A stretch of 64,000 nucleotides of DNA from a virus: IMG/VR virus record IMGVR_UViG_3300043436_004687, positions 71,099 through 135,098 of that record; one strand, written 5' to 3'. Positions within the stretch are counted from its first letter, which is position 1. Each line of letters begins with the position of its first letter. Under the pieces are notes generated by a model. That model did no database searches and was not told the origin of the DNA. It saw nothing but the letters and a program-made list of their open reading frames with translations. The position numbers were made by a program, and so were the translations under genes. Below are positions 43,088 through 53,292 of the stretch, in pieces.

Positions 43088-44094
43088 TATATTTTAGTAA
43101 TACTATTATTATCTCTTTTAGGTACTCTAGTGTAACCATTTTTAGCACTTGGTATTTCAACTGAAAAACCTCTTTCACGTTCCTTTACCTTTTCAATATC
43201 AACTCTTTCTTTTTCGATGGTATTTTGTTGTGTTTGAATAACATTGGTTTTATCATTTTGAATCGTTTGTTCTTCAATTACTTCTTTCTCATCAGTTTTA
43301 GGGTATTCCTTTATTTCAGAATCTAAACTTTCATTAAATTCTTTTTTCTTTTTTTCTTTTTCAAAAACCCATGTGGTTGCAATAATAAGGGCAATTGCTA
43401 ATGGATCAAAAACAAATATTAAAAGCAATATAAAATAATTCACAACAACATCCATTGGTTTACCCGTTAATTTAGATAAATATTTTAATGGACCCACCTC
43501 ACCAGCTACTTTGGAATTTATGGTTGATTCTGATTTAATTGAATTATATTTACCGATGGAATCTATCAATTTACTATTTTCAACATTTAAAAAATCAATA
43601 TTAGAGTTAACTTCTTTAATTTCATTTCTGTTACCCCTATTTGATTTACCAGTTGAAATATCTTGGTTATTTAATTGATCAACTCTTTTATTTCTCGTCT
43701 CAATTAAAAGCTTATTAGAATTTAATTTATTTTGAAATTGATTAATCTTACTATCTAAAATATTTATTTTACTATCATATAATTCTAAATTTGAAGCTGT
43801 TTTTTGATAAGCCGAAGATAAAAACCCATAAATACCAGCAGATGTTATAGAAACTAAAATAATAACACCAACAGTCAGATAAATCCTTAATGTTTTAGAT
43901 ATGTCACCCCAATATTTATGTAGAAAACTAGCGGTTATTACTTTACTCAATTCTAAAGCAGATGCCATAATTATTACTGAAATATTCGCACCAGCAAATA
44001 ACATAGATAAACCTATAACCGAAAAAAAACCAGAGCAAATCGCTAATATAATTGATGAAAACCCCAATAAATGACCAAAATGAATTTTAAACAT
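43087..44094 (-). CDS. hypothetical membrane protein with multiple TM helices and a coiled-coil
   Basis: N-terminal hydrophobic helices, central Asn/Lys-rich coiled-coil, and a further TM segment. Confidence 0.45.
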   Translation of the reverse strand: MFKIHFGHLLGFSSIILAICSGFFSVIGLSMLFAGANISVIIMASALELSKVITASFLHKYWGDISKTLRIYLTVGVIILVSITSAGIYGFLSSAYQKTASNLELYDSKINILDSKINQFQNKLNSNKLLIETRNKRVDQLNNQDISTGKSNRGNRNEIKEVNSNIDFLNVENSKLIDSIGKYNSIKSESTINSKVAGEVGPLKYLSKLTGKPMDVVVNYFILLLIFVFDPLAIALIIATTWVFEKEKKKKEFNESLDSEIKEYPKTDEKEVIEEQTIQNDKTNVIQTQQNTIEKERVDIEKVKERERGFSVEIPSAKNGYTRVPKRDNNSITKI

Positions 44095-44096
44095 TA

Positions 44097-44927
44097 TTAA
44101 TTATTTTTAAGAAAATTATATAATTCACTAGAATTTAATCGTAATTTTTTTATAGTTGAAGCATTAATTTGTCTAACCCTCTCCTTTGAGAGATTAAACT
44201 TTTCACCAATATCTTCTAAATCCATTGTTTCTGGGTAAGAATTTAAACCATAGTACATTTCAATCATATCTCTCTCCCTAGGTTGTAATAAACTTAATGT
44301 TTTTTCCAACACTTTAGCTAATTTTGTATTATCTATTTTAGATAAATCTTCTTCAATACTACTATCTAATAAATATTCTAAAGCCTCATCATTATCTTCA
44401 CCAATAAAATTATTTATTGAAGTACAAATTGGTAGAACTAATTCTTCATATTCTTCACCGTCAATCATTTCACCATTTATTGGATATCTTTTATTGATGG
44501 ATTCAAATCTTTCAATTCTTTTTTTATTAAGCGTTTCTTTTATTATAACATTTACTGGTAATCTAATGGTCCTAGCGTTAAAATTAAGACTTTCTATTAT
44601 AGATTGTCTAATCCAATAAACTGCATATGATATAAATTTAAATCCTTTAGTGTAATCAAATTTTTTAGCAGCTTTGATTAAACCATAATTACCTTCACTA
44701 ATTAAATCACTAAATAACAAACCTTGACCTTGATAATCCTTAGCTATTGAAACTACAAATTTTAAATTAGCTGACACTAAGGCATCGACTGCTTTAGGAT
44801 CACCATTTTGTATTCTTTTTGCTAATTCAACCTCTTCTTCTGGGGTTAAAGATTTAGTTTTTTTAATTTCTTTGAAATAATTATTTATGGTATCTTCTGA
44901 ACTAATGGTTGCATAATTACTTTTCAT
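44097..44927 (-). CDS. RNA polymerase sigma-70 family factor
   Basis: Region 2 DLISEGNYGLIKAAKKFDYTKGFKFISYAVYWIRQSIIESL and region 4 HTH LSKERVRQINASTIKKLR. Confidence 0.75.
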   Translation of the reverse strand: MKSNYATISSEDTINNYFKEIKKTKSLTPEEEVELAKRIQNGDPKAVDALVSANLKFVVSIAKDYQGQGLLFSDLISEGNYGLIKAAKKFDYTKGFKFISYAVYWIRQSIIESLNFNARTIRLPVNVIIKETLNKKRIERFESINKRYPINGEMIDGEEYEELVLPICTSINNFIGEDNDEALEYLLDSSIEEDLSKIDNTKLAKVLEKTLSLLQPRERDMIEMYYGLNSYPETMDLEDIGEKFNLSKERVRQINASTIKKLRLNSSELYNFLKNN

Positions 44928-45440
44928 TTATTTGTTAATATTTCCTACTTTGTTATTGTTAAAGAGCGCATTTAATATGTTTTTTTCCTCTTCATTTATA
45001 TTTTCTAACCCCTTATCTAATATTTCATCAATAAGTTTTATTTTTTCTTCTTGTGAATAAACTATGGGTTCTTGTTTAAGTATTTTAATGTCAACATCAA
45101 TATACTTAACCTTAGTTTTAGGTTGCACTAAAATTTCAACCTTATTTTTATTTTGTTTGACACAAAACTTATCGAATAAATGCCCTTTAATCCTATCTGG
45201 TAAATTATAAATTAAATTTTTTTCTTCATTTATAAACAAAAAGAAAACTAAACCATCGTGTTCACTTAATAAATTTTCAATTTCACCTAATTCAAAAGCG
45301 GATGTAAATGTTATAAAAAAATTATTTTTTATGTAAGCATAACTTGGAGCTTCATTGGAAATTGATTTTATTTCTTCTTTGAGAATTTTGCTTAATTTTT
45401 CGTCAATAAAAGCAATCAAACAATATTTTTTTATTTGCAT
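44928..45440 (-). CDS. hypothetical protein
   Basis: 170-aa ORF. Promoter motif at 45459-45469. Confidence 0.4.
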   Translation of the reverse strand: MQIKKYCLIAFIDEKLSKILKEEIKSISNEAPSYAYIKNNFFITFTSAFELGEIENLLSEHDGLVFFLFINEEKNLIYNLPDRIKGHLFDKFCVKQNKNKVEILVQPKTKVKYIDVDIKILKQEPIVYSQEEKIKLIDEILDKGLENINEEEKNILNALFNNNKVGNINK

Positions 45441-45491
45441 AGTTAATATTTAATTAAGGCAAATATAGTAATAAGATCAATACTTTACAAC

Positions 45492-47735
45492 CTATTTGAG
45501 CATTAATTTTGAGATGTGATTTATCTTATTGATTGTTATTAAGTTATCAGCCCAATTTTTAACCTCTTCTTTGTGGGTTATAAAGAAAACAATATCAAAC
45601 ATGGCCTTTATTTTCTCAAACATAGGTTTAATCAATGGTATATTTTCTTCAGCAACCGTACCACTAATAACCTCATCAAATGTTATAAAATTAGGCATTG
45701 GTAGATGTGATAATTTACCCAAAACGCATCTTAATGCAATACTAGAAACGGTCTTCTCAAAACCACTACCAGATTTTAAAGGTTGTTCAATACCATCTTT
45801 ACTGATTAAATACTCCACTTCATTTTTTGAATTAATGATAAGCTCCAATTCAAAATCACAAACATCATCCATAAGTCTAACTAATTCTGAATTTATAATA
45901 GGTAAAACAGACCTTAAAACAAGTTTACTAATACCTTTTTTCCCCATCATTTCAATATAAACTTTAAAAATCTTCTCTAATTCTTCTTCAACTTTAATTT
46001 TTTTAAGTATTAATTCATTATTTAAAATAGATTTATCTTTATCCTCTAATAACAATTCCGTTGTAGTAATGAATCGATTAGAATCATCCCTTTCTTTTTC
46101 TTTGACTAGAATATCGGTTTTTACTAAAGAAACTTCGACATCGACATTACTATTAAATGTGATTGAATTCTTATTTTGTTCATATTTTTTTAAATCACTA
46201 TTTTTAGATTTTATTTTTTCCCTAAGTCCATTTAATTCAACTTCTAACCTTTCTTTTTTCAATTCAAAGTTATTCTTTTTATCAACTTTAACTTTGGTTT
46301 CATTTAAAACATCGATCTTACCTTTTAAATCTATAATAATTTTATTAATTTTCGACAATTCTTTGTGTTTATCATCTAATAAACCATTATTTTTTTTAAT
46401 ATCTTCTGAGTGATCTACATTATCTAAAGGTTTTGAACATGTTGGGCAGAACTCACCATTGACAAGTTGATCAACCAACTCATTTAATTTTAATATTTCA
46501 GAATCTAAAATTATTTTCTTAGAATTTTGCTCATTTAATGTTTTATTTAAATTTTGATATTCATTTTCATTATACTCTACATTACCTATAAGTTGTATTT
46601 CTTTAACTAAATCATCTATCTGTTGTTTAACAGATTTCCCAGTTATTGTTATTTTATCAACATCATCTTTTAAAGTTAGTGGATTTAACTGAGTAATAAC
46701 AACATCAATAGTGTGTTTAGAAGATAATAATTCATCTTTTTTATTATTTAAATTTACTAACTCATTATTAATTAATAATAAATTATTTTTTTCATTTTTT
46801 AATAATTCTTTATTTGTATTGATGTCTTCTTTAGCTGTTGAAATTTCTTCCAGTAAAGTTGTTTCATTATATATGTTAGTTTGTTTAGTTTTAGAAAAGG
46901 AATTATACATTTCTCTAACAGCCTTTTCTTTTAAGTCTAAAATTTCTAAACCAATAAACCTGGTTAATAACTTACCACTTTCAGTTGGTGAACTATCAAT
47001 TAAATCTTCTAGATTTTTAGCGGTTGCTAATATAGTTATGTCAAAATCTTTTTCATTACCAACTATCTTTTCTATTTCTAATGAGGTTTTTTTAGCATCC
47101 TCATCATTCATTAAGATTTCTTCACCATCTGGAAGAATTTCAAAATAGTTAACATTATTTTTTATATTAAAGCCACCCTCCCTTTTAGAACTTCTAGTCA
47201 TCTTTCTTTCGATAATAATTTCTTTATTATCGAATCCTACCATACCTCTAACACTCAATTCATTTTTATCCGAAAATAAGTTAAATATTTGCTCGTTTTT
47301 ATCTGTTTTTGTTGTTTTACCAAAAAATAAAAATTTAACAGAATCAACTGAAAATGTTGTATTATGTGAAACTATACCATTTGAATAATATTGGTGGACA
47401 TCATCTACTTGAATATCGAATAAATCATTTTTTTCAGGTAGAATTTTAATATTTTCTACTTCACTTAATCCATCTATGGTTTCTATTAAATCACCAATTT
47501 TAATTTCATTTAAATTAATGAAATCACCATTATTATTTTTTAATTTATGTAAATCAGCACCTTCAACATACATACCATTTTTTAAATCACATCTATAAAC
47601 CTCGGCATTTTTTTCAGTTATACCACACCAACTAATATTATGGTAACCATAAGGATTTTTAACTTTAAACCCCAAATCACCATACTTTTCATATATTTTA
47701 TTTAAATCACCAATTTTAATTTCTTTATTCATCAT
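45492..47735 (-). CDS. SbcC/Rad50-like ATPase (T4 gp46-like), C-terminal part, carrying an N-terminal IntC (intein C-half, about 125 aa)
   Basis: The first 125 aa end in DIQVDDVHQYYSNGIVSHN|T (intein blocks F/G and +1 Thr). They are followed by the remainder of Walker A (TTFSVDSVKFLFFGK), long coiled-coils, signature SGSGFEK, Walker B ITFDEV and H-loop FFITH. Confidence 0.7.
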   Translation of the reverse strand: MMNKEIKIGDLNKIYEKYGDLGFKVKNPYGYHNISWCGITEKNAEVYRCDLKNGMYVEGADLHKLKNNNGDFINLNEIKIGDLIETIDGLSEVENIKILPEKNDLFDIQVDDVHQYYSNGIVSHNTTFSVDSVKFLFFGKTTKTDKNEQIFNLFSDKNELSVRGMVGFDNKEIIIERKMTRSSKREGGFNIKNNVNYFEILPDGEEILMNDEDAKKTSLEIEKIVGNEKDFDITILATAKNLEDLIDSSPTESGKLLTRFIGLEILDLKEKAVREMYNSFSKTKQTNIYNETTLLEEISTAKEDINTNKELLKNEKNNLLLINNELVNLNNKKDELLSSKHTIDVVITQLNPLTLKDDVDKITITGKSVKQQIDDLVKEIQLIGNVEYNENEYQNLNKTLNEQNSKKIILDSEILKLNELVDQLVNGEFCPTCSKPLDNVDHSEDIKKNNGLLDDKHKELSKINKIIIDLKGKIDVLNETKVKVDKKNNFELKKERLEVELNGLREKIKSKNSDLKKYEQNKNSITFNSNVDVEVSLVKTDILVKEKERDDSNRFITTTELLLEDKDKSILNNELILKKIKVEEELEKIFKVYIEMMGKKGISKLVLRSVLPIINSELVRLMDDVCDFELELIINSKNEVEYLISKDGIEQPLKSGSGFEKTVSSIALRCVLGKLSHLPMPNFITFDEVISGTVAEENIPLIKPMFEKIKAMFDIVFFITHKEEVKNWADNLITINKINHISKLMLK
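47361..47735 (-). other. IntC half of an atypically split intein
   Basis: Blocks B-like (GADLHKL), F (DIQVDD.HQYY.NG) and G (IVSHN). It ends immediately before the extein Thr. Confidence 0.6.
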
Positions 47736-48741
47736 TATTTTTTAAAAAATTAATACATTTATTTAATTCTACTTCTGGATTACTTCTATATTCCGAATCC
47801 CATATTATTAAAACCTCAAAACCTTCTTTTTTAGCTAAGTTTATTTTTTTTTCATCTCTATCCCAAATCTCTTTAGCGGTTAATTTTTTATTAAATGGGT
47901 TTGGGAAACTGTCTGCATTATAAAGTTTAGGATTCCCATGAAATAAATCGCCATTATATTCAATAATTTTTTTATTTTTTAAATCAGTAAAATCATATCT
48001 AAAAAAACTTCTTTTATCTTTTATCATTAACTCACCACCCATTTCACTAAATTTAATATAATTTAAATCGCTCAAATTATAAATTTTAATTAATTCTCTA
48101 AACATTTTTTGAGATATTTCAGAACAACCTACTTTTAATTTGCCATTTCTAAATAAACTTTCTTGCCATTTAATTTGTCTTTCATTCCAAACTTTTAAAC
48201 CCTCTTCTTCCCCATACTTTTCTATGCATTTTGATAAATTAAATGTAGTTTGTCTTTCAGATTGTTTTATTTTAGCTTCTTCTTTATTAAACCCTTTTTT
48301 TAACCAAAATTCGATATTAGCACTACCCATTTTACCACAAGTACTTCTTAACTTTTCCCTACTATTCCATTTTAACAATCCTTCTTTTTCACCAAATCTA
48401 GCAATACAGCCTTTTAAAGAGCACATTTTTTGGCCGTCTGTTTGATCTTTAGCTTCCTTATCAGAATAACCTCTACTAGTCCAATATTCAATATTCGTTG
48501 GTTGTAACGTCTTAACATGTTTTATTGCCTCTTCTTCATTTAAACCTCTTTGTATCCAATATTTTATAGAATAAGCCGACCCTTTTGCAATTGAAACCCC
48601 ACTATTTTTTAATCTATTAGTAATTACCTCTGGATCAACATTAAACTTATCTGCAATAAATCTTGTTGATTTTAACTCAATTAAATATAAATTAACCATT
48701 TCATTTAATTGTTCTTCTGTAAATTTAATTTTATTCGCCAT
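47725..48741 (-). CDS. free-standing homing endonuclease-like protein located between the two halves of the split sbcC gene
   Basis: Three YW..RG..EEA DNA-binding repeats plus a C-terminal nuclease-like block EYNGDLFHGNPK...EGFEVLIIWDSE. It has its own promoter motif at 48781-48790. Confidence 0.55.
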   Translation of the reverse strand: MANKIKFTEEQLNEMVNLYLIELKSTRFIADKFNVDPEVITNRLKNSGVSIAKGSAYSIKYWIQRGLNEEEAIKHVKTLQPTNIEYWTSRGYSDKEAKDQTDGQKMCSLKGCIARFGEKEGLLKWNSREKLRSTCGKMGSANIEFWLKKGFNKEEAKIKQSERQTTFNLSKCIEKYGEEEGLKVWNERQIKWQESLFRNGKLKVGCSEISQKMFRELIKIYNLSDLNYIKFSEMGGELMIKDKRSFFRYDFTDLKNKKIIEYNGDLFHGNPKLYNADSFPNPFNKKLTAKEIWDRDEKKINLAKKEGFEVLIIWDSEYRSNPEVELNKCINFLKNNDE

Positions 48742-48799
48742 TATATCTATTTTAAAATAAATATAACCGACTAATTAAAAAGGCAAATAGATTTAAATT

Positions 48800-49375
48800 T
48801 TATTTTAGTTCATCAGGTAAAAAACCTATTTTTTTTATTATTTCACTGGGGTCAAATTCAATATCTATAATAGTATCATATTTCACACATTTACCACCAA
48901 AATTTGCTGGTGATGATGTGATTATATTAAGCCCACTTAACTTATCAAATGAAATAAAATTACCTTCTCCAAAACAAAGAAAATTATTTATACTCAACCA
49001 TTTTAATGAATAAGATCTTTGTTTCACATCTTCACCATGAAAACTAACATCCGTATTAATTTTATCATCTAACTTTAAAAGTCTATCAAAATCAACATCT
49101 TTTTTTTCATTATCAAACCAACTTTTCATTAATTGTCTTTGATAATTCACATCCATTATATTTTCAACCCCAGCTCCAGTTATCTCAATTAGCTCACCAT
49201 TTTTATCTGTTTTAACTGGTGTATAAATAACCGTAATATTTTCTTTATTTATATTATATTTTTTAGAAAAATCATTTCTAATTTTTAATTTAGCTTCTCT
49301 AGAATAATTTTCTGTTTTATCAGACCATTGTACTTTTACCTTTGCATTAGGTGGAACCATTAATTTATCTTTCAT
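48800..49375 (-). CDS. SbcC/Rad50-like ATPase N-terminal part ending in IntN (about 28 aa)
   Basis: LKWLSINNFLCF...LNIITSSPANFGGK is the SbcC N-terminus and interrupted Walker A. It is followed by CVKYDTIIDIEFDP (intein block A, Cys1) and a stop. Confidence 0.65.
   Translation of the reverse strand: MKDKLMVPPNAKVKVQWSDKTENYSREAKLKIRNDFSKKYNINKENITVIYTPVKTDKNGELIEITGAGVENIMDVNYQRQLMKSWFDNEKKDVDFDRLLKLDDKINTDVSFHGEDVKQRSYSLKWLSINNFLCFGEGNFISFDKLSGLNIITSSPANFGGKCVKYDTIIDIEFDPSEIIKKIGFLPDELK
48803..48886 (-). other. IntN half (about 28 aa) of an atypically split intein
   Basis: CVKYDTIIDIEFDPSEIIKKIGFLPDELK fits the Cys1...D-T-x-I block A consensus at the extein P-loop junction. Confidence 0.55.
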
Positions 49376-49387
49376 TAATTTAATATT

Positions 49388-49582
49388 TTATTTATTTATC
49401 TTTTTTTCCCAAATTTTATAACCTTCATTATAACAAAAATTATGAAATTCATCACTTTGATTTACTATCCAACTCCCATTATCTAATTTAATTGAACCAC
49501 CATTTTTATTTATGTACCAACTAATAAAATCATTATTTGATGAAAATAAACGCATGCAAAAGTATTTTAAATATTTACTCAT
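49388..49582 (-). CDS. hypothetical protein
   Basis: 64-aa ORF. Confidence 0.3.
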   Translation of the reverse strand: MSKYLKYFCMRLFSSNNDFISWYINKNGGSIKLDNGSWIVNQSDEFHNFCYNEGYKIWEKKINK

Positions 49583-49760
49583 CTTTTTCTATTTTAAAAC
49601 CACAAGATTCACACTTACCATATTTTTCGGAACATTCTAAGCATATTTTATCACAAGGGATATGTGCAGTAGATACTTCTGTATCACACAATTCACATTT
49701 ACCATAAGAAAATGCATGTAATACTATTTTATTTTTACAAGAGCTGCAATAGTTACTCAT
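49575..49760 (-). CDS. small zinc-ribbon protein
   Basis: 61 aa with CSSC...CELC...CDKICLEC...CESCG. Confidence 0.35.
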   Translation of the reverse strand: MSNYCSSCKNKIVLHAFSYGKCELCDTEVSTAHIPCDKICLECSEKYGKCESCGFKIEKDE

Positions 49761-50192
49761 TATTTAATTTCATATTTAATAACATCAAATATTGGTTCGA
49801 ATTTTGATGTTTCCTTATTTAACTTTAAAGCCATATATGTACCCGCTGGACCATCATTTATATATCCAGGTATGTAATAATTAATATAATACATAGAATT
49901 ATTACTATCTTCAATAAAACAATATTTATAATAAAGTTTAGCTATGACATTCTTAATAACTTTCATATTATTTATTGGTTAGGATTTCTTTATTATTTTC
50001 AATATCCTCAACAGATTTAACCTTAAAATTATAAAAACCAAAGTTTGTTTCTATATTATGTTCAGTAAATTCTCTACTTTCAACATCCCAACTTAAAAAC
50101 CCATGATTACCAACAGATTCCCCAAAATTGTTTTGTAAAAGACTACCGCTAAAACAAATAGGTGTTAATTTTTTTATTTTAATTTTTTTCAT
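49760..50192 (-). CDS. SbcD/Mre11-like nuclease C-terminal portion, in two frames (49968..50192 and 49760..49966), possibly frameshifted
   Basis: LTPICFSGSLLQNNFGE matches the SbcD PIRYSGSPLPLSF motif that follows the GHxH phosphoesterase motif. The next ORF abuts it with a 2-nt offset. Confidence 0.45.
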
Positions 50193-50196
50193 ATTT

Positions 50197-51081
50197 TTAT
50201 ACTGTTAAATTATTAAACCAATTAATAACTTCTTTATTTTTATTATCATAACCCATAAAATTAATTTTATATCTAATATTTAAACTATTGAAATAAAGTA
50301 AAGAAGCCTCACATTTTAATTTAAAATTATTAATATTAATTATATAACCTTTTACTTCTTCCATTATTTTAGTACCATCTTTATTAATAATTAAAAAATC
50401 TGGTAAATATCTTTTTACTTTATTATCTTCAATATATTTAATTACATGACCATGTTTTTTTGTCCAAAAAATAACCTCATCATCTAAATCTAATTCATTC
50501 ATCCTTTTCTCTTCAAAAGATGAATGATAATATTCTTTAACATTTGTTTTTTTATTATCATAATACCCTCTTTTAAAATTATTTGAACCAATAACCCCAT
50601 TTTCAGATATTCGTTTAATATTAGCTATTGAAATTTTATTTCTAAATTCATCATTTTGAAAATCAAAACTACCATCTTCAGTTCTATGCCTATCTAAGAA
50701 TGCTAAATGTTTCACTAATCTTTCAGGAGTTTCCCAACTTTCTGTTATTTTTTTACTTATTAACAACCTCATATCAGCATTATGGAAACCCCATTTATTT
50801 TCTCTACCAAAATTACCATTATTTTCACCTAACTGATAATATTTTTGCCAATTTATTTGACAACTTATTGAACAAAATTTACGTTTAGCTGTGATTGTGG
50901 TTTCAAATATATTAGTACAACCAGTGTATTCACATTGTTTATTAATTCTTTCTAATTTTTTATTAGATTGCCCACAAATTCTGGAACAATATTTTTGTTT
51001 TGTTTTATAAGTTTTAAATTCTAATTTACAAGATTCACAAGTTTTTATCATATTTATATCTTTATTTATAAATATCACCAA
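50197..51081 (-). CDS. free-standing homing endonuclease-like protein (Cys-rich N-terminus + PD-(D/E)xK-like C-terminus) inserted within the sbcD gene
   Basis: Multiple CxxC pairs in the N-terminus. The C-terminal YLPDFLIINKDGTKIMEEVKG resembles a PD-x(n)-E-x-K motif. Confidence 0.45.
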   Translation of the reverse strand: MVIFINKDINMIKTCESCKLEFKTYKTKQKYCSRICGQSNKKLERINKQCEYTGCTNIFETTITAKRKFCSISCQINWQKYYQLGENNGNFGRENKWGFHNADMRLLISKKITESWETPERLVKHLAFLDRHRTEDGSFDFQNDEFRNKISIANIKRISENGVIGSNNFKRGYYDNKKTNVKEYYHSSFEEKRMNELDLDDEVIFWTKKHGHVIKYIEDNKVKRYLPDFLIINKDGTKIMEEVKGYIININNFKLKCEASLLYFNSLNIRYKINFMGYDNKNKEVINWFNNLTV

Positions 51082-51097
51082 AAAAAACTAAATCACA

Positions 51098-51784
51098 TTA
51101 ATTATCAATTAACCACCCATCTTTTATATATTGTTTTAACTCATTTTCATCAATTTCTTTAGTTTGTTTATAATAAAAATTTTGCCTTTTATGAATATCA
51201 CCAAGCATTACGATATCACAACCCTCAAAATGTTCTAATGAAGTTGCGTGCTCAAATTCATAACCAATATCTGTTTTTGCACCTAATATTGGCCCATGAA
51301 AAAGTCCTATTGTAGTATATTCACCCTTATTATTAATTTTAAAAGCTTCAATATCTGGTCTTTCATTATCCTGAAAAATGGAATAATTTGCCCAGATAAT
51401 ATTATCATCCAAATAACATTCACTATCTTTAAAATAAGAAATGTTTGGGTTGTTTAATAATTTAACCATGGGAGTGATAGAATCCATTCTATCTTTATTA
51501 TTTAGATTTAAATCATGGTTACCAGCCACTATTATAAGTGGCGCAATATCAGAGAGTTTTTTTAAAAATTGAGTACATATTGTTAATTGTTCATTGGAGA
51601 TTATTGTCTTGCTATGTACCAGATCACCAACTAAAGCAATTCTAACTTCACTATATTCATACCCCACCATTAATTCTTTTAATTTAAGATATAAATCATC
51701 AAATACTTCTTGAAACTCTTTATGTAAGACATAGGTTCTGATATGGATATCACTAATGTGAAAAATTAATTTTACTTTATTCAT
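51098..51784 (-). CDS. SbcD/Mre11-like metallophosphoesterase nuclease, N-terminal catalytic part
   Basis: Motifs HISDIH (DxH), VGDLVH, AGNHDL (GNHD), GLFHG, GDIHKRQ (GHxH-like). The ORF ends right after the last motif. Confidence 0.65.
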   Translation of the reverse strand: MNKVKLIFHISDIHIRTYVLHKEFQEVFDDLYLKLKELMVGYEYSEVRIALVGDLVHSKTIISNEQLTICTQFLKKLSDIAPLIIVAGNHDLNLNNKDRMDSITPMVKLLNNPNISYFKDSECYLDDNIIWANYSIFQDNERPDIEAFKINNKGEYTTIGLFHGPILGAKTDIGYEFEHATSLEHFEGCDIVMLGDIHKRQNFYYKQTKEIDENELKQYIKDGWLIDN

Positions 51785-51853
51785 TTAATATTATTTATTG
51801 CAAATATAAATTCAAAACTAATAAGTTGCAACTATTTATAGTAAAATAATAGA

Positions 51854-52345
51854 ATGAAAGAATTTATATTAAATAAACTAAGAGAGAATTTATTAAAAGA
51901 GTCTGTAGACACTAAAAAGTTGTTAGATTTAGCCTTAAAAAGTTCGTTTGAAAGTGAAAGTTTAGCTAAAAATTATATCACAAAATCAATAAAAGAATTA
52001 AATAACTTACCTGATATAATTACATTATATAGGGTTATATTTGCTAAAGATAAAAATTCAATAAATCAAAAAGAAATTGGTAGTCATTATGTGATGAATA
52101 GAAGACAATTAGAACAAAGTCATCAATTTATTAGTCATGTGGGTGGTGGGACTCCATTTATGTTAACAGTAAAGGCACCAAAATCATTAATTGATTTGGA
52201 AACTACGTTGGAGAACAAAGTAATGTACCCACATGAAAATGAAATAACTTTAAAGAATAAAGGTGTTGGTGCTAAGATAATTAGGATTGACTCATTTCAA
52301 GCGGAAGAAGATGGATTTGATGGATTTGATCCTTATGATTATTAA
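51854..52345 (+). CDS. hypothetical protein (plus strand)
   Basis: 163-aa ORF convergent with the primase gene. Confidence 0.4.
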   Translation: MKEFILNKLRENLLKESVDTKKLLDLALKSSFESESLAKNYITKSIKELNNLPDIITLYRVIFAKDKNSINQKEIGSHYVMNRRQLEQSHQFISHVGGGTPFMLTVKAPKSLIDLETTLENKVMYPHENEITLKNKGVGAKIIRIDSFQAEEDGFDGFDPYDY

Positions 52346-53292
52346 ATTCTACTTTCTTTAAGTTTATGTGCCGTTTTTAAGACATTATAAACCCCCCTTT
52401 TTGATTGTTTTTGGTGAATTAATGATAAGTCCCAATCTTCACCTAATTTAACGATTCTAACCCTATTATATAAATTTAAAGTATTTAATTGTTTATATAA
52501 TCTAACAGCATCTTTATAAGCATCACCATCAAACACAATTACAACTAAACCAGTTGCTTTATATTGTAAGTCGTAAAATAATTTTTCAGAAACCATTTTA
52601 CCCAAATTTATTATTGGGTTAGGGCAAACTATCCCATCGAATGCACCCTCAACAAGATATATCGTTGCATCCCAATTAATCATTGATTCATTAAAATGAA
52701 TGAGTGTTTTTTTAAATTCTGGGTTTAAATATTTAGGTTTACCCCACTTTAAAAAAGTTCTTGCAATAAAAAAATCTAATTCGTTATTTAAATTATATGA
52801 TGGAATTATAATTCTATTTGCAAATTTACCTATTGTGGTAAAACCAATTTTATATTTTTCTATTATATCTGGGGTAATATTCCTAATTTTTAAATAAGTC
52901 ATAGCTTCTTTATATTTTGGAATATTGGGGTTGCAGTTAATTAATGGAGTATAACCCTCTGGTAAAGAAATTACTTCAGAAATTAGTGGTATATTATCTT
53001 CTGTTTTGTAAATTGGGTTTACTAGGGAATAATCTTTTAAGTTTTGTGATGTCCCAAATCTTTTTATTAACTTAGGTAATGAACCACCCATATTATCAGT
53101 ATCATAACAAGACCAACATCTAAATTTATTTTTAATGTAATTTACTTCTAAATTATGTTTACCATCACCTTTTGTTAGACCCTTATTAAATGCACATGCT
53201 GGGCAATCATATTGCAATTGCCCAGAATCCTCATTATGATAATGAGGTTCACCTAAAAAACTATCTAATATATTTACAATTAAATGTGACAT
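52342..53292 (-). CDS. DNA primase (DnaG/T4 gp61-like: zinc-binding domain + TOPRIM)
   Basis: Zinc finger CPACAF...CWSCYD, followed by TOPRIM motifs YLVEGAFDGIV and VIVFDGDAYKDA. Confidence 0.7.
   Translation of the reverse strand: MSHLIVNILDSFLGEPHYHNEDSGQLQYDCPACAFNKGLTKGDGKHNLEVNYIKNKFRCWSCYDTDNMGGSLPKLIKRFGTSQNLKDYSLVNPIYKTEDNIPLISEVISLPEGYTPLINCNPNIPKYKEAMTYLKIRNITPDIIEKYKIGFTTIGKFANRIIIPSYNLNNELDFFIARTFLKWGKPKYLNPEFKKTLIHFNESMINWDATIYLVEGAFDGIVCPNPIINLGKMVSEKLFYDLQYKATGLVVIVFDGDAYKDAVRLYKQLNTLNLYNRVRIVKLGEDWDLSLIHQKQSKRGVYNVLKTAHKLKESRI

Follow-up and report, generated by a model that had tools for sequence, protein, structure and literature searches.

A free-standing homing-endonuclease-like gene divides the Mre11/SbcD gene of a large phage into two pieces that probably assemble without splicing

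Various phage genes are broken by free-standing endonuclease genes and nevertheless keep their function. The example closest to the one treated here was described by Dassa et al. 2009 (PMC2677866), who reported one Global Ocean Sampling (GOS) locus from Lake Gatun where a Vsr-like endonuclease gene, unaccompanied by an intein, breaks up an SbcD-like gene. At the break, 25 extra C-terminal and 9 extra N-terminal residues are present which are not found in unsplit homologues. The downstream piece is abutted or overlapped by the endonuclease gene, and hairpins with TATAAATA occur upstream of such endonucleases (PMC2677866). In the nrdA-a/mobE/nrdA-b locus of phage Aeh1 (Friedrich et al. 2007; Crona et al. 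2011, PMC3045599), the split NrdA requires its oppositely charged tails, and Crona et al. predicted such tails elsewhere (PMC3045599). Further examples are the T4 topoisomerase genes 39/mobA/60, with tail-like extensions noted on gp39 and gp60, and gene 43 of Aeromonas phage 25, which is broken by a GIY-YIG open reading frame (ORF) (PMC3045599, PMC2677866). The present analysis concerns the Mre11/SbcD gene in a stretch of 64,000 nucleotides (positions 71,099 to 135,098 of the IMG/VR record IMGVR_UViG_3300043436_004687), referred to as the window. It is AT-rich (about 25% G+C) and derives from a 339-kb metagenomic contig of a large phage. A mobile cassette of about 1 kb, which carries a free-standing homing-endonuclease gene, is proposed to reside inside this Mre11/SbcD gene, at the tip of the beta-hairpin that comes after the GDIH metal-binding motif.

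The two pieces of the gene, ORF A and ORF B, flank the endonuclease ORF (Table 1). ORF A is a Metallophos/SbcD-like protein (Pfam E 7e-10; phrog_100 positions 25-223) that runs past GDIH and then stops, while ORF B, beginning 4 nt past the endonuclease ORF, resumes the phage SbcD profile at the end of A (phrog_100 positions 221-287). Because B starts on the profile where A stops, the split is real and precise. A reading of the window from its sequence alone, termed here the sequence-only reading, had assigned both ORFs to SbcD and proposed that a homing-endonuclease-like gene divides them, and the profile matches and the unsplit relatives described below agree with this. All metal-ligand motifs (DxH, GD, GNHD/E, H, and GxxH) are located on A, namely D12/H14, D54, N89/H90, H163, and H198. 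In an alignment of 67 sequences, these ligands are invariant, H14 nearly so, and all invariant residues of the family are kept in A and B.

A scan of viral contigs yielded 569 relatives. Related loci or contigs are labelled L001 and so on, and homologous database proteins P0055 and so on, L103 being the contig of P0055. In the subclade of the window, Mre11 has a gene of its own, which encodes about 270 aa and reads GDIHKRQsFnHKGiPIAYPSSLIQQNFGE without interruption. A large database yielded roughly 2,400 homologues, and the two closest proteins in it, P0055 (274 aa, 78% identity) and P0057 (275 aa, 73%), are both unsplit and have no extra residues at the break. When L103 is aligned with the window at the DNA level (blastn), 82% identity extends up to position 51168, and homology resumes at 50166, with 86.5% identity to the stop codon. 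The window thus carries a 1,001-bp insert, which takes the place of a single Gly codon (GGA) of L103, the insertion point being TATAAG/GGA/ACACC. Close relatives have an uninterrupted gene, which in the window is broken by the endonuclease ORF at one exact site. Besides the endonuclease gene, the insert includes the last 22 codons of A and the first nine codons of B, whose products are called tail and head. In LR756508, an uncultured 484-kb phage, Mre11 is split in the same way as in the window, and the endonuclease is homologous. Microcystis phage Mel-JY01 encodes a single uninterrupted Mre11-Rad50 fusion of 1,066 aa, and the pieces in the window are collinear with that protein: residues 1-201 of A correspond to its residues 1-207, residues 12-73 of B to 215-275, residues 43-175 of a 191-aa ORF to 299-430, and residues 130-744 of a 747-aa ORF to 421-1061. 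No match was obtained when the region was compared by distant blastn with 50,697 phage records. An assembly artefact was rejected in view of the identical arrangement on several contigs from different samples. In L067 (6000-9500), the Mre11 and Rad50 genes are fragmented into many short ORFs, representing either a decayed locus or poor assembly.

Both Mre11 pieces are under purifying selection, with ratios of nonsynonymous to synonymous substitution rates (dN/dS) of 0.08 (A core) and 0.05 (B core) relative to unsplit L103, the nearest unsplit relative. An interrupted gene whose second piece measures merely 74 aa might have been inactivated by the insertion, in which case A and B would be decaying pseudogene fragments. 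This is highly unlikely in view of the dN/dS values, the presence of all invariant family residues in both pieces, and the recurrence of the same split with intact ORFs across lineages that are only 34-61% identical.

Rejoining of the pieces at the RNA level was raised in the sequence-only reading, which suggested that Mre11 is interrupted by a group I intron bearing the endonuclease gene. Such introns with an endonuclease ORF are common in phage genes, and the insert adjoins a conserved catalytic motif, as is often the case with introns. However, Rfam covariance models detected no intron family at E ≤ 10 in 44000-53000, nor at E ≤ 1 in eight related split loci. Non-coding sequence around the endonuclease gene amounts to only 46 + 4 nt, and in relatives the ORFs often overlap. 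Moreover, tail and head are conserved as peptides, and alleles free of the endonuclease read both in frame, as a segment of about 90 nt that is too short for a group I intron. The intron proposal did not survive these comparisons and is extremely improbable.

Rejoining at the protein level would require that tail and head are degenerate remnants of a split intein, the pieces being joined, now or once, by protein trans-splicing. The neighbouring Rad50 has a genuine split intein, whose N part is very short, a Thr directly after the head is a possible +1 nucleophile, and an intein origin was raised by Crona et al. for the Aeh1 tails (PMC3045599). The tail, however, starts with QTKE instead of Cys, Ser, or Ala, and the head ends with KKL instead of HN, so both the Cys/Ser start and the His-Asn end of an intein are absent. 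Together, tail and head comprise 31 aa, compared with about 130 aa for a HINT fold. Pfam gives no intein signal on A or B, unlike on Rad50 piece D, and the absence of intein motifs from the Mre11 pieces, noted in the sequence-only reading, is confirmed. Endonuclease-free alleles retain the segment as ordinary protein sequence, and AlphaFold2 (AF2) makes it part of the fold. An intein remnant accordingly merits hardly any credence. Translational bypass of 1 kb was dismissed as implausible.

The evidence favours the other possibility named in the sequence-only reading, a genuinely two-piece nuclease. It is very probable that A and B are two polypeptides which assemble non-covalently into one Mre11, with no RNA or protein splicing. 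The gene would be expressed as A (228 aa), with all metal-ligand motifs, and B (74 aa), which contributes the last core strands and a small C-terminal domain, and both would join non-covalently into one Mre11 fold. Structure prediction of joined A and B with AF2 and the 67-sequence alignment gave a mean predicted local distance difference test (pLDDT) score of 90.8; a single-sequence prediction had been unusable (pLDDT 46.6) and was rerun with the alignment. The top PDB matches of the model in Foldseek are Mre11 of T. maritima, Mre11 of P. furiosus, and SbcD of E. coli (prob 1.00). Around the break, the model comprises a long strand (201-210), a helix (213-221), a short strand (225-228), the split between 228 and 229, and a long strand (233-242) to which the head contributes, with a pLDDT of 82-93 for this block. 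Unsplit proteins form a tight strand-turn-strand at the break site (SFNYK-G-TPICF). Hence, the cassette appears to be located at the tip of a beta-hairpin, both strands of which are lengthened with charge-complementary residues. With the 22-aa acidic tail and the 9-aa basic head, the broken hairpin would become an elongated ribbon with complementary charges and a helix as its cap. This ribbon probably stabilises the reassembly and renders the insertion tolerable. An assisting role of the cassette-borne tails in reassembly is judged slightly likelier than its absence.

Nine split lineages were compared, namely the window, L084, L088, L068, L090, L092, L101, L001, and, more loosely, L100. The tail motif EIDExxLxxY(I/L)xxGWE(I/V) and the head motif MxKIKI(K/R)K are common to all of them. 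In the window, the isoelectric point (pI) is 4.3 for the tail and 10.6 for the head; across the split lineages, tails range from 4.1 to 4.4 and heads from 9.7 to 11.3. The ratio of nonsynonymous to synonymous polymorphism (pN/pS) in tail and head codons is mostly 0.25-0.5. The tails of the window and L092 are identical at 13 of 17 positions, with identities of about 37-40% for the Mre11 N-domains and about 37% for the endonucleases. Strong constraint on the peptide would be the simplest explanation of this tail identity. A regex scan of all related loci for a donor gene of the tail revealed no other gene ending with the tail motif.

The split is found together with a homologous endonuclease also in L001, L084-L093, and L099-L102, and together with a chimeric endonuclease in L068. 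In a neighbour-joining tree of the N-domain, calculated without bootstrap values, split alleles are dispersed, each beside unsplit alleles, and they occur in Rad50-fused and in unfused clades. The divergences of endonuclease and host correlate (rho 0.58), with discordant cases such as L084/L088, which are 76% identical in Mre11 and 49% identical in the endonuclease. This pattern suggests a long association of the endonuclease with Mre11, combined with some horizontal movement.

The endonuclease itself consists of N-terminal zinc-finger repeats (CxxC/QKYCSxxC) and a C-terminal TnsA-like PD-(D/E)xK nuclease domain. In public data, its start is called at the ATG at 51051, which yields 284 aa (P0001); the Cys-rich ORF that the sequence-only reading placed 16 nt downstream of A holds for the alternative TTG start. 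The family comprises 54 clusters. E173/E180...P217-D218...E232-x-K234 is invariant in 26 members, 18 of which match PF08722 (TnsA-like_N), with a best E of 1.3e-7. A PDB profile search with the family returned marginal matches only, and a pattern scan of viral contigs with a two-endonuclease alignment gave no confirmed matches. The same Mre11 site is occupied by all eight close or moderately distant members that were sampled. Homologous Mre11 genes are polymorphic for the presence or absence of the endonuclease at this identical site, and its distribution is patchy. More remote members stand alone between other genes, and one of these is directly upstream of an intact Mre11-Rad50 gene. In L094 (2450-2500), the relic FHIADIHSF, followed by a stop, precedes a free-standing relative of the endonuclease just upstream of intact Mre11-Rad50. 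This relic is a diverged copy of motif I of the downstream Mre11 (VHIADIHIR).

The endonuclease presumably cuts cassette-free Mre11 alleles in co-infection, and repair would copy the cassette with tail and head. In the chimeric endonuclease of L068 (6686-7606), the N-terminal region is homologous to the TnsA-like enzyme of the window (E 2e-10), and the C-terminal nuclease is homologous to the second, Vsr-like endonuclease of the window (E 1e-8). This suggests that the zinc-finger region may set the target, and that the nuclease module may be exchangeable between the two families. The motif I relic of L094, in turn, hints that the family may target DIH-coding DNA and may have changed sites between motif I and motif V.

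The spacer between A and the endonuclease gene contains a conserved element, GGTGATATTTATAAATA, with the T4-late-promoter-like TATAAATA. In addition, a 9-bp hairpin is present, the 3' arm of which covers the AU of the endonuclease start codon. Its fold has -9.2 kcal/mol and a z of -2.07 in the window; z is -2.44 in L084 and -4.24 in L092, and the hairpin is weak in four others. Translation of the endonuclease is probably held down by this 5' hairpin, within which the late-promoter-like TATAAATA lies. GGTGATATTTATAAATA differs little from the DNA that encodes GDIHK (GGTGATATTCATAAAAG, 51186-51202), some 120 nt further upstream. Possible explanations of the element are a relic of the target and an operator for autorepression, which is known from I-TevI. 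The constraints of hairpin and TATAAATA explain the conservation of GGTGATATTTATAAATA at least as well as a GDIHK relic would. With 3 mismatches allowed, the element has 5 matches in the window against 2.8 expected, which is not above chance. The other matches are inside ORFs, so GGTGATATTTATAAATA is not a general promoter motif. A scan for sigma-70 promoters and terminators found 67, compared with 70 expected in AT-rich DNA.

Taken together, the two charged peptides, the promoter region with its hairpin regulation, and the endonuclease gene may constitute a single self-contained split-and-reassemble cassette that moves horizontally and whose peptide module would be strongly selected itself and would work in Mre11s that are about 35% identical, including Rad50-fused ones. 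This proposal is tentative and is held at a little under even confidence. Several observations weigh against the overall explanation by a two-piece Mre11 and an inserted mobile cassette, or against parts of it. The AF2 model is an artificial single-chain join, and the segment is represented in only about six of the 67 alignment rows. The PF08722 score of the window endonuclease is 21.7 bits and lies under the gathering threshold of 26.5. The spacer hairpin is AU-only and significant in only three of seven loci. The association of endonuclease and Mre11 may be largely vertical, as their divergences correlate.

The remaining objection comes from endonuclease-free alleles (L003/P0063, P0067, P0071, P0076, and P0078) which contain tail and head in one frame, separated by 3-9 variable residues. 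L003 is the sister of the split L088/L089 allele in the neighbour-joining tree. L003, P0067, P0071, P0076, and P0078 could be pre-insertion targets, and the segment might therefore be older than the cassette. Under such an explanation, the segment of about 30 aa is a native loop, of long standing in some Mre11 lineages, which the endonuclease merely targeted, so that tail and head are not element-borne and have no special role in assembly. The in-frame segment, the sister position of L003, and the correlated divergences are in line with it. Nevertheless, the segment is present in nine of nine split lineages, from Rad50-fused and unfused clades about 35% identical, and the nearest relatives of each are without it. 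Its motifs are furthermore more degenerate in endonuclease-free than in split alleles, with GW replaced by KW or NW. A native loop is thus considered unlikely. The segment-bearing alleles without the endonuclease are rather read, from these comparisons, as probable scars of endonuclease loss, which would decay once the segment is unneeded. A DNA-level deletion junction was sought in L003, and none was recognisable. In the unsplit P0154 (285 aa), the helix half of the tail is kept (LEINEDELENYKK) and the hairpin part is gone; it appears to be a partly deleted scar.

If the cassette proposal is true, it describes a natural, portable, and non-covalent alternative to the split intein, by which an endonuclease gene could settle inside an essential gene and, once lost, leave slowly decaying in-frame scars. 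Segment-keeping alleles without the endonuclease suggest a cycle of invasion and loss that is readable at the protein level. The locus would lend comparative support to the proposal of Crona et al. that mobile elements carry their own peptide antidote to gene fragmentation (PMC3045599), as the same tail and head pair occurs with the endonuclease in many divergent phages, versus the single case of Aeh1 NrdA. For annotation, the three ORFs are best described as one functional Mre11 plus a mobile element, and not as a truncated phosphoesterase, with the downstream small ORF kept separate. For engineering, the short ribbon with its complementary charges might serve as a natural tag in the design of split proteins. 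Current understanding is not overturned.

Table 1. Features of the split Mre11/SbcD locus and its surroundings, in window coordinates
Feature	Coordinates	Strand	Length	Basis or remarks
ORF A, Mre11/SbcD N-fragment including tail	51098..51784	-	228 aa	
Mre11/SbcD N-fragment core (codons 1-206)	51167..51784	-		motifs DIH, GD, GNHD, FHG, GDIH; Pfam Metallophos, phrog_100
Whole inserted cassette: tail, stop, spacer, endonuclease gene, head	50166..51166	-	1,001 bp	blastn of L103 against the window
Acidic C-terminal tail of N-fragment (QTKEIDENELKQYIKDGWLIDN + stop)	51098..51166	-	22 aa	not in P0055, P0057, or typical homologues
Spacer	51052..51097	-	46 nt	element GGTGATATTTATAAATA at 51063..51079, TATAAATA, 9-bp hairpin; spacers compared across loci
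Homing-endonuclease-like gene, free-standing, from ATG	50197..51051	-	284 aa	zinc-finger repeats and TnsA-like PD-(D/E)xK
Endonuclease ORF, open from TTG at 51081	50197..51081	-		16 nt downstream of A if TTG is used
ORF B, Mre11/SbcD C-fragment including head	49968..50192	-	74 aa	begins 4 nt past the endonuclease stop
Basic N-terminal head of C-fragment (MKKIKIKKL)	50166..50192	-	9 aa	MxKIKI(K/R)K conserved in split lineages
Mre11/SbcD C-fragment core (TPICFSGSLLQNNFGE... to native stop)	49968..50165	-		phrog_100 positions 221-287; 86.5% DNA identity to L103
Three small orphan ORFs, outside Mre11	49388..49966	-	68, 61, 64 aa	variable Mre11-Rad50 spacer; the 61-aa ORF is a four-Cys-pair zinc-ribbon protein
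68-aa ORF	49760..49966	-	68 aa	one of the three orphans
Rad50/SbcC gene, P-loop broken by split intein	45492..49375	-		blastp to intact Rad50 of L006
Vsr-like endonuclease gene between Rad50 intein halves	47725..48741	-		second endonuclease of the window

The C-terminal end of Mre11 was a further point of the sequence-only reading, which suspected an extra frameshift at 49967 and regarded the 68-aa ORF as the last part of the gene. B ends with DIENNKEILTNK, and unsplit homologues end with DIENNKEILTNK (P0055) or DIENNNEILTNK (L013), in each case directly before the stop codon. The DNA similarity between the window and L103 stops exactly at the stop codon of B. Judged by these alignments, the stop of B is the native Mre11 stop, and what was suspected as a frameshift at 49967 is no more than this codon with an orphan gene after it. 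The 68-aa ORF exists and, by the same kind of comparison, is an unrelated orphan and not part of Mre11. All three small ORFs are without a homologue in about 100 related loci and without similarity to Mre11-Rad50 proteins. In relatives, one to three small variable ORFs separate Mre11 from a Rad50 of about 790 aa, the N-terminus of which matches the 191-aa ORF of the window.

Rad50/SbcC of the window contains a split intein and the second endonuclease gene, which confirms that both SbcCD subunits are invaded, as the sequence-only reading had claimed. The P-loop is broken (NFGGK/C...SHN/T) by an atypically split intein with an N part of 28 aa and a C part of 125 aa. In a blastp comparison with the intact Rad50 of L006, residues 8-171 of the latter correspond to residues 1-163 of piece C, and residues 171-786 correspond to residues 126-742 of piece D. 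This break resembles the unusual 'Terminase' split described by Dassa et al. 2009 (PMC2677866). Distant relatives (L002 4001-7201, L001 5596-8181, L071, L072, and L094) encode Mre11 and Rad50 as one fused polypeptide. The linker region of this fusion persists in the window clade as an N-terminal extension of Rad50 of about 120 aa.

Split-intein fractured genes (Dassa et al. 2009), such as Rad50 of the window, share with Mre11 the layout of N piece, endonuclease gene, and C piece. Unlike these genes, the Mre11 pieces do not contain intein blocks, and known protein-splicing chemistry cannot ligate them. The closest counterpart of the Mre11 locus is the Lake Gatun locus, compared here by its published description, with which it shares the split SbcD without an intein, the free-standing endonuclease, the extra residues on both sides of the break, and the TATAAATA hairpin. 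The endonucleases differ, with a TnsA-like PD-(D/E)xK domain in the window and a Vsr-like enzyme at Lake Gatun, and only the N-terminal zinc-finger region is common to the window enzyme and the Vsr-type enzyme. L068, with its Vsr-like nuclease domain, looks like the Lake Gatun type. The present analysis extends beyond this single locus to many lineages, conserved tails, segment-keeping endonuclease-free alleles, and a clean 1,001-bp boundary, and leaves the conclusions of that earlier description as they were.

In the Aeh1 NrdA system as in the window, a free-standing endonuclease gene breaks the gene of an essential enzyme between neighbouring beta-strands; separate translation of the pieces, which applies to Aeh1, is probable in the window. 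Both have unique, oppositely charged tails at the break, which in the window, too, probably arose with the insertion. Further likenesses to the Aeh1 type are an endonuclease gene that overlaps the piece downstream of it and the intergenic location of endonuclease relatives elsewhere, for which L094 may be compared. In Aeh1, by contrast, the host enzyme is ribonucleotide reductase (RNR) and the endonuclease is of the HNH type. The charge polarity is also reversed: the Aeh1 pieces have a basic upstream and an acidic downstream tail, and those of the window an acidic tail upstream and a basic head downstream. Aeh1 is a single case with biochemical proof, whereas the window type is represented by many lineages with conserved tails. 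T4 39/mobA/60 and gene 43 of Aeromonas phage 25 differ from the window in their host genes and endonuclease families. T4 gene 60 additionally requires a translational bypass of 50 nt, and nothing like this is seen in the window. Considering the SbcD-like locus of Dassa et al. and the Aeh1 tails of Crona et al., the window is another case of a known arrangement, in which the nuclease domain of the endonuclease is different.

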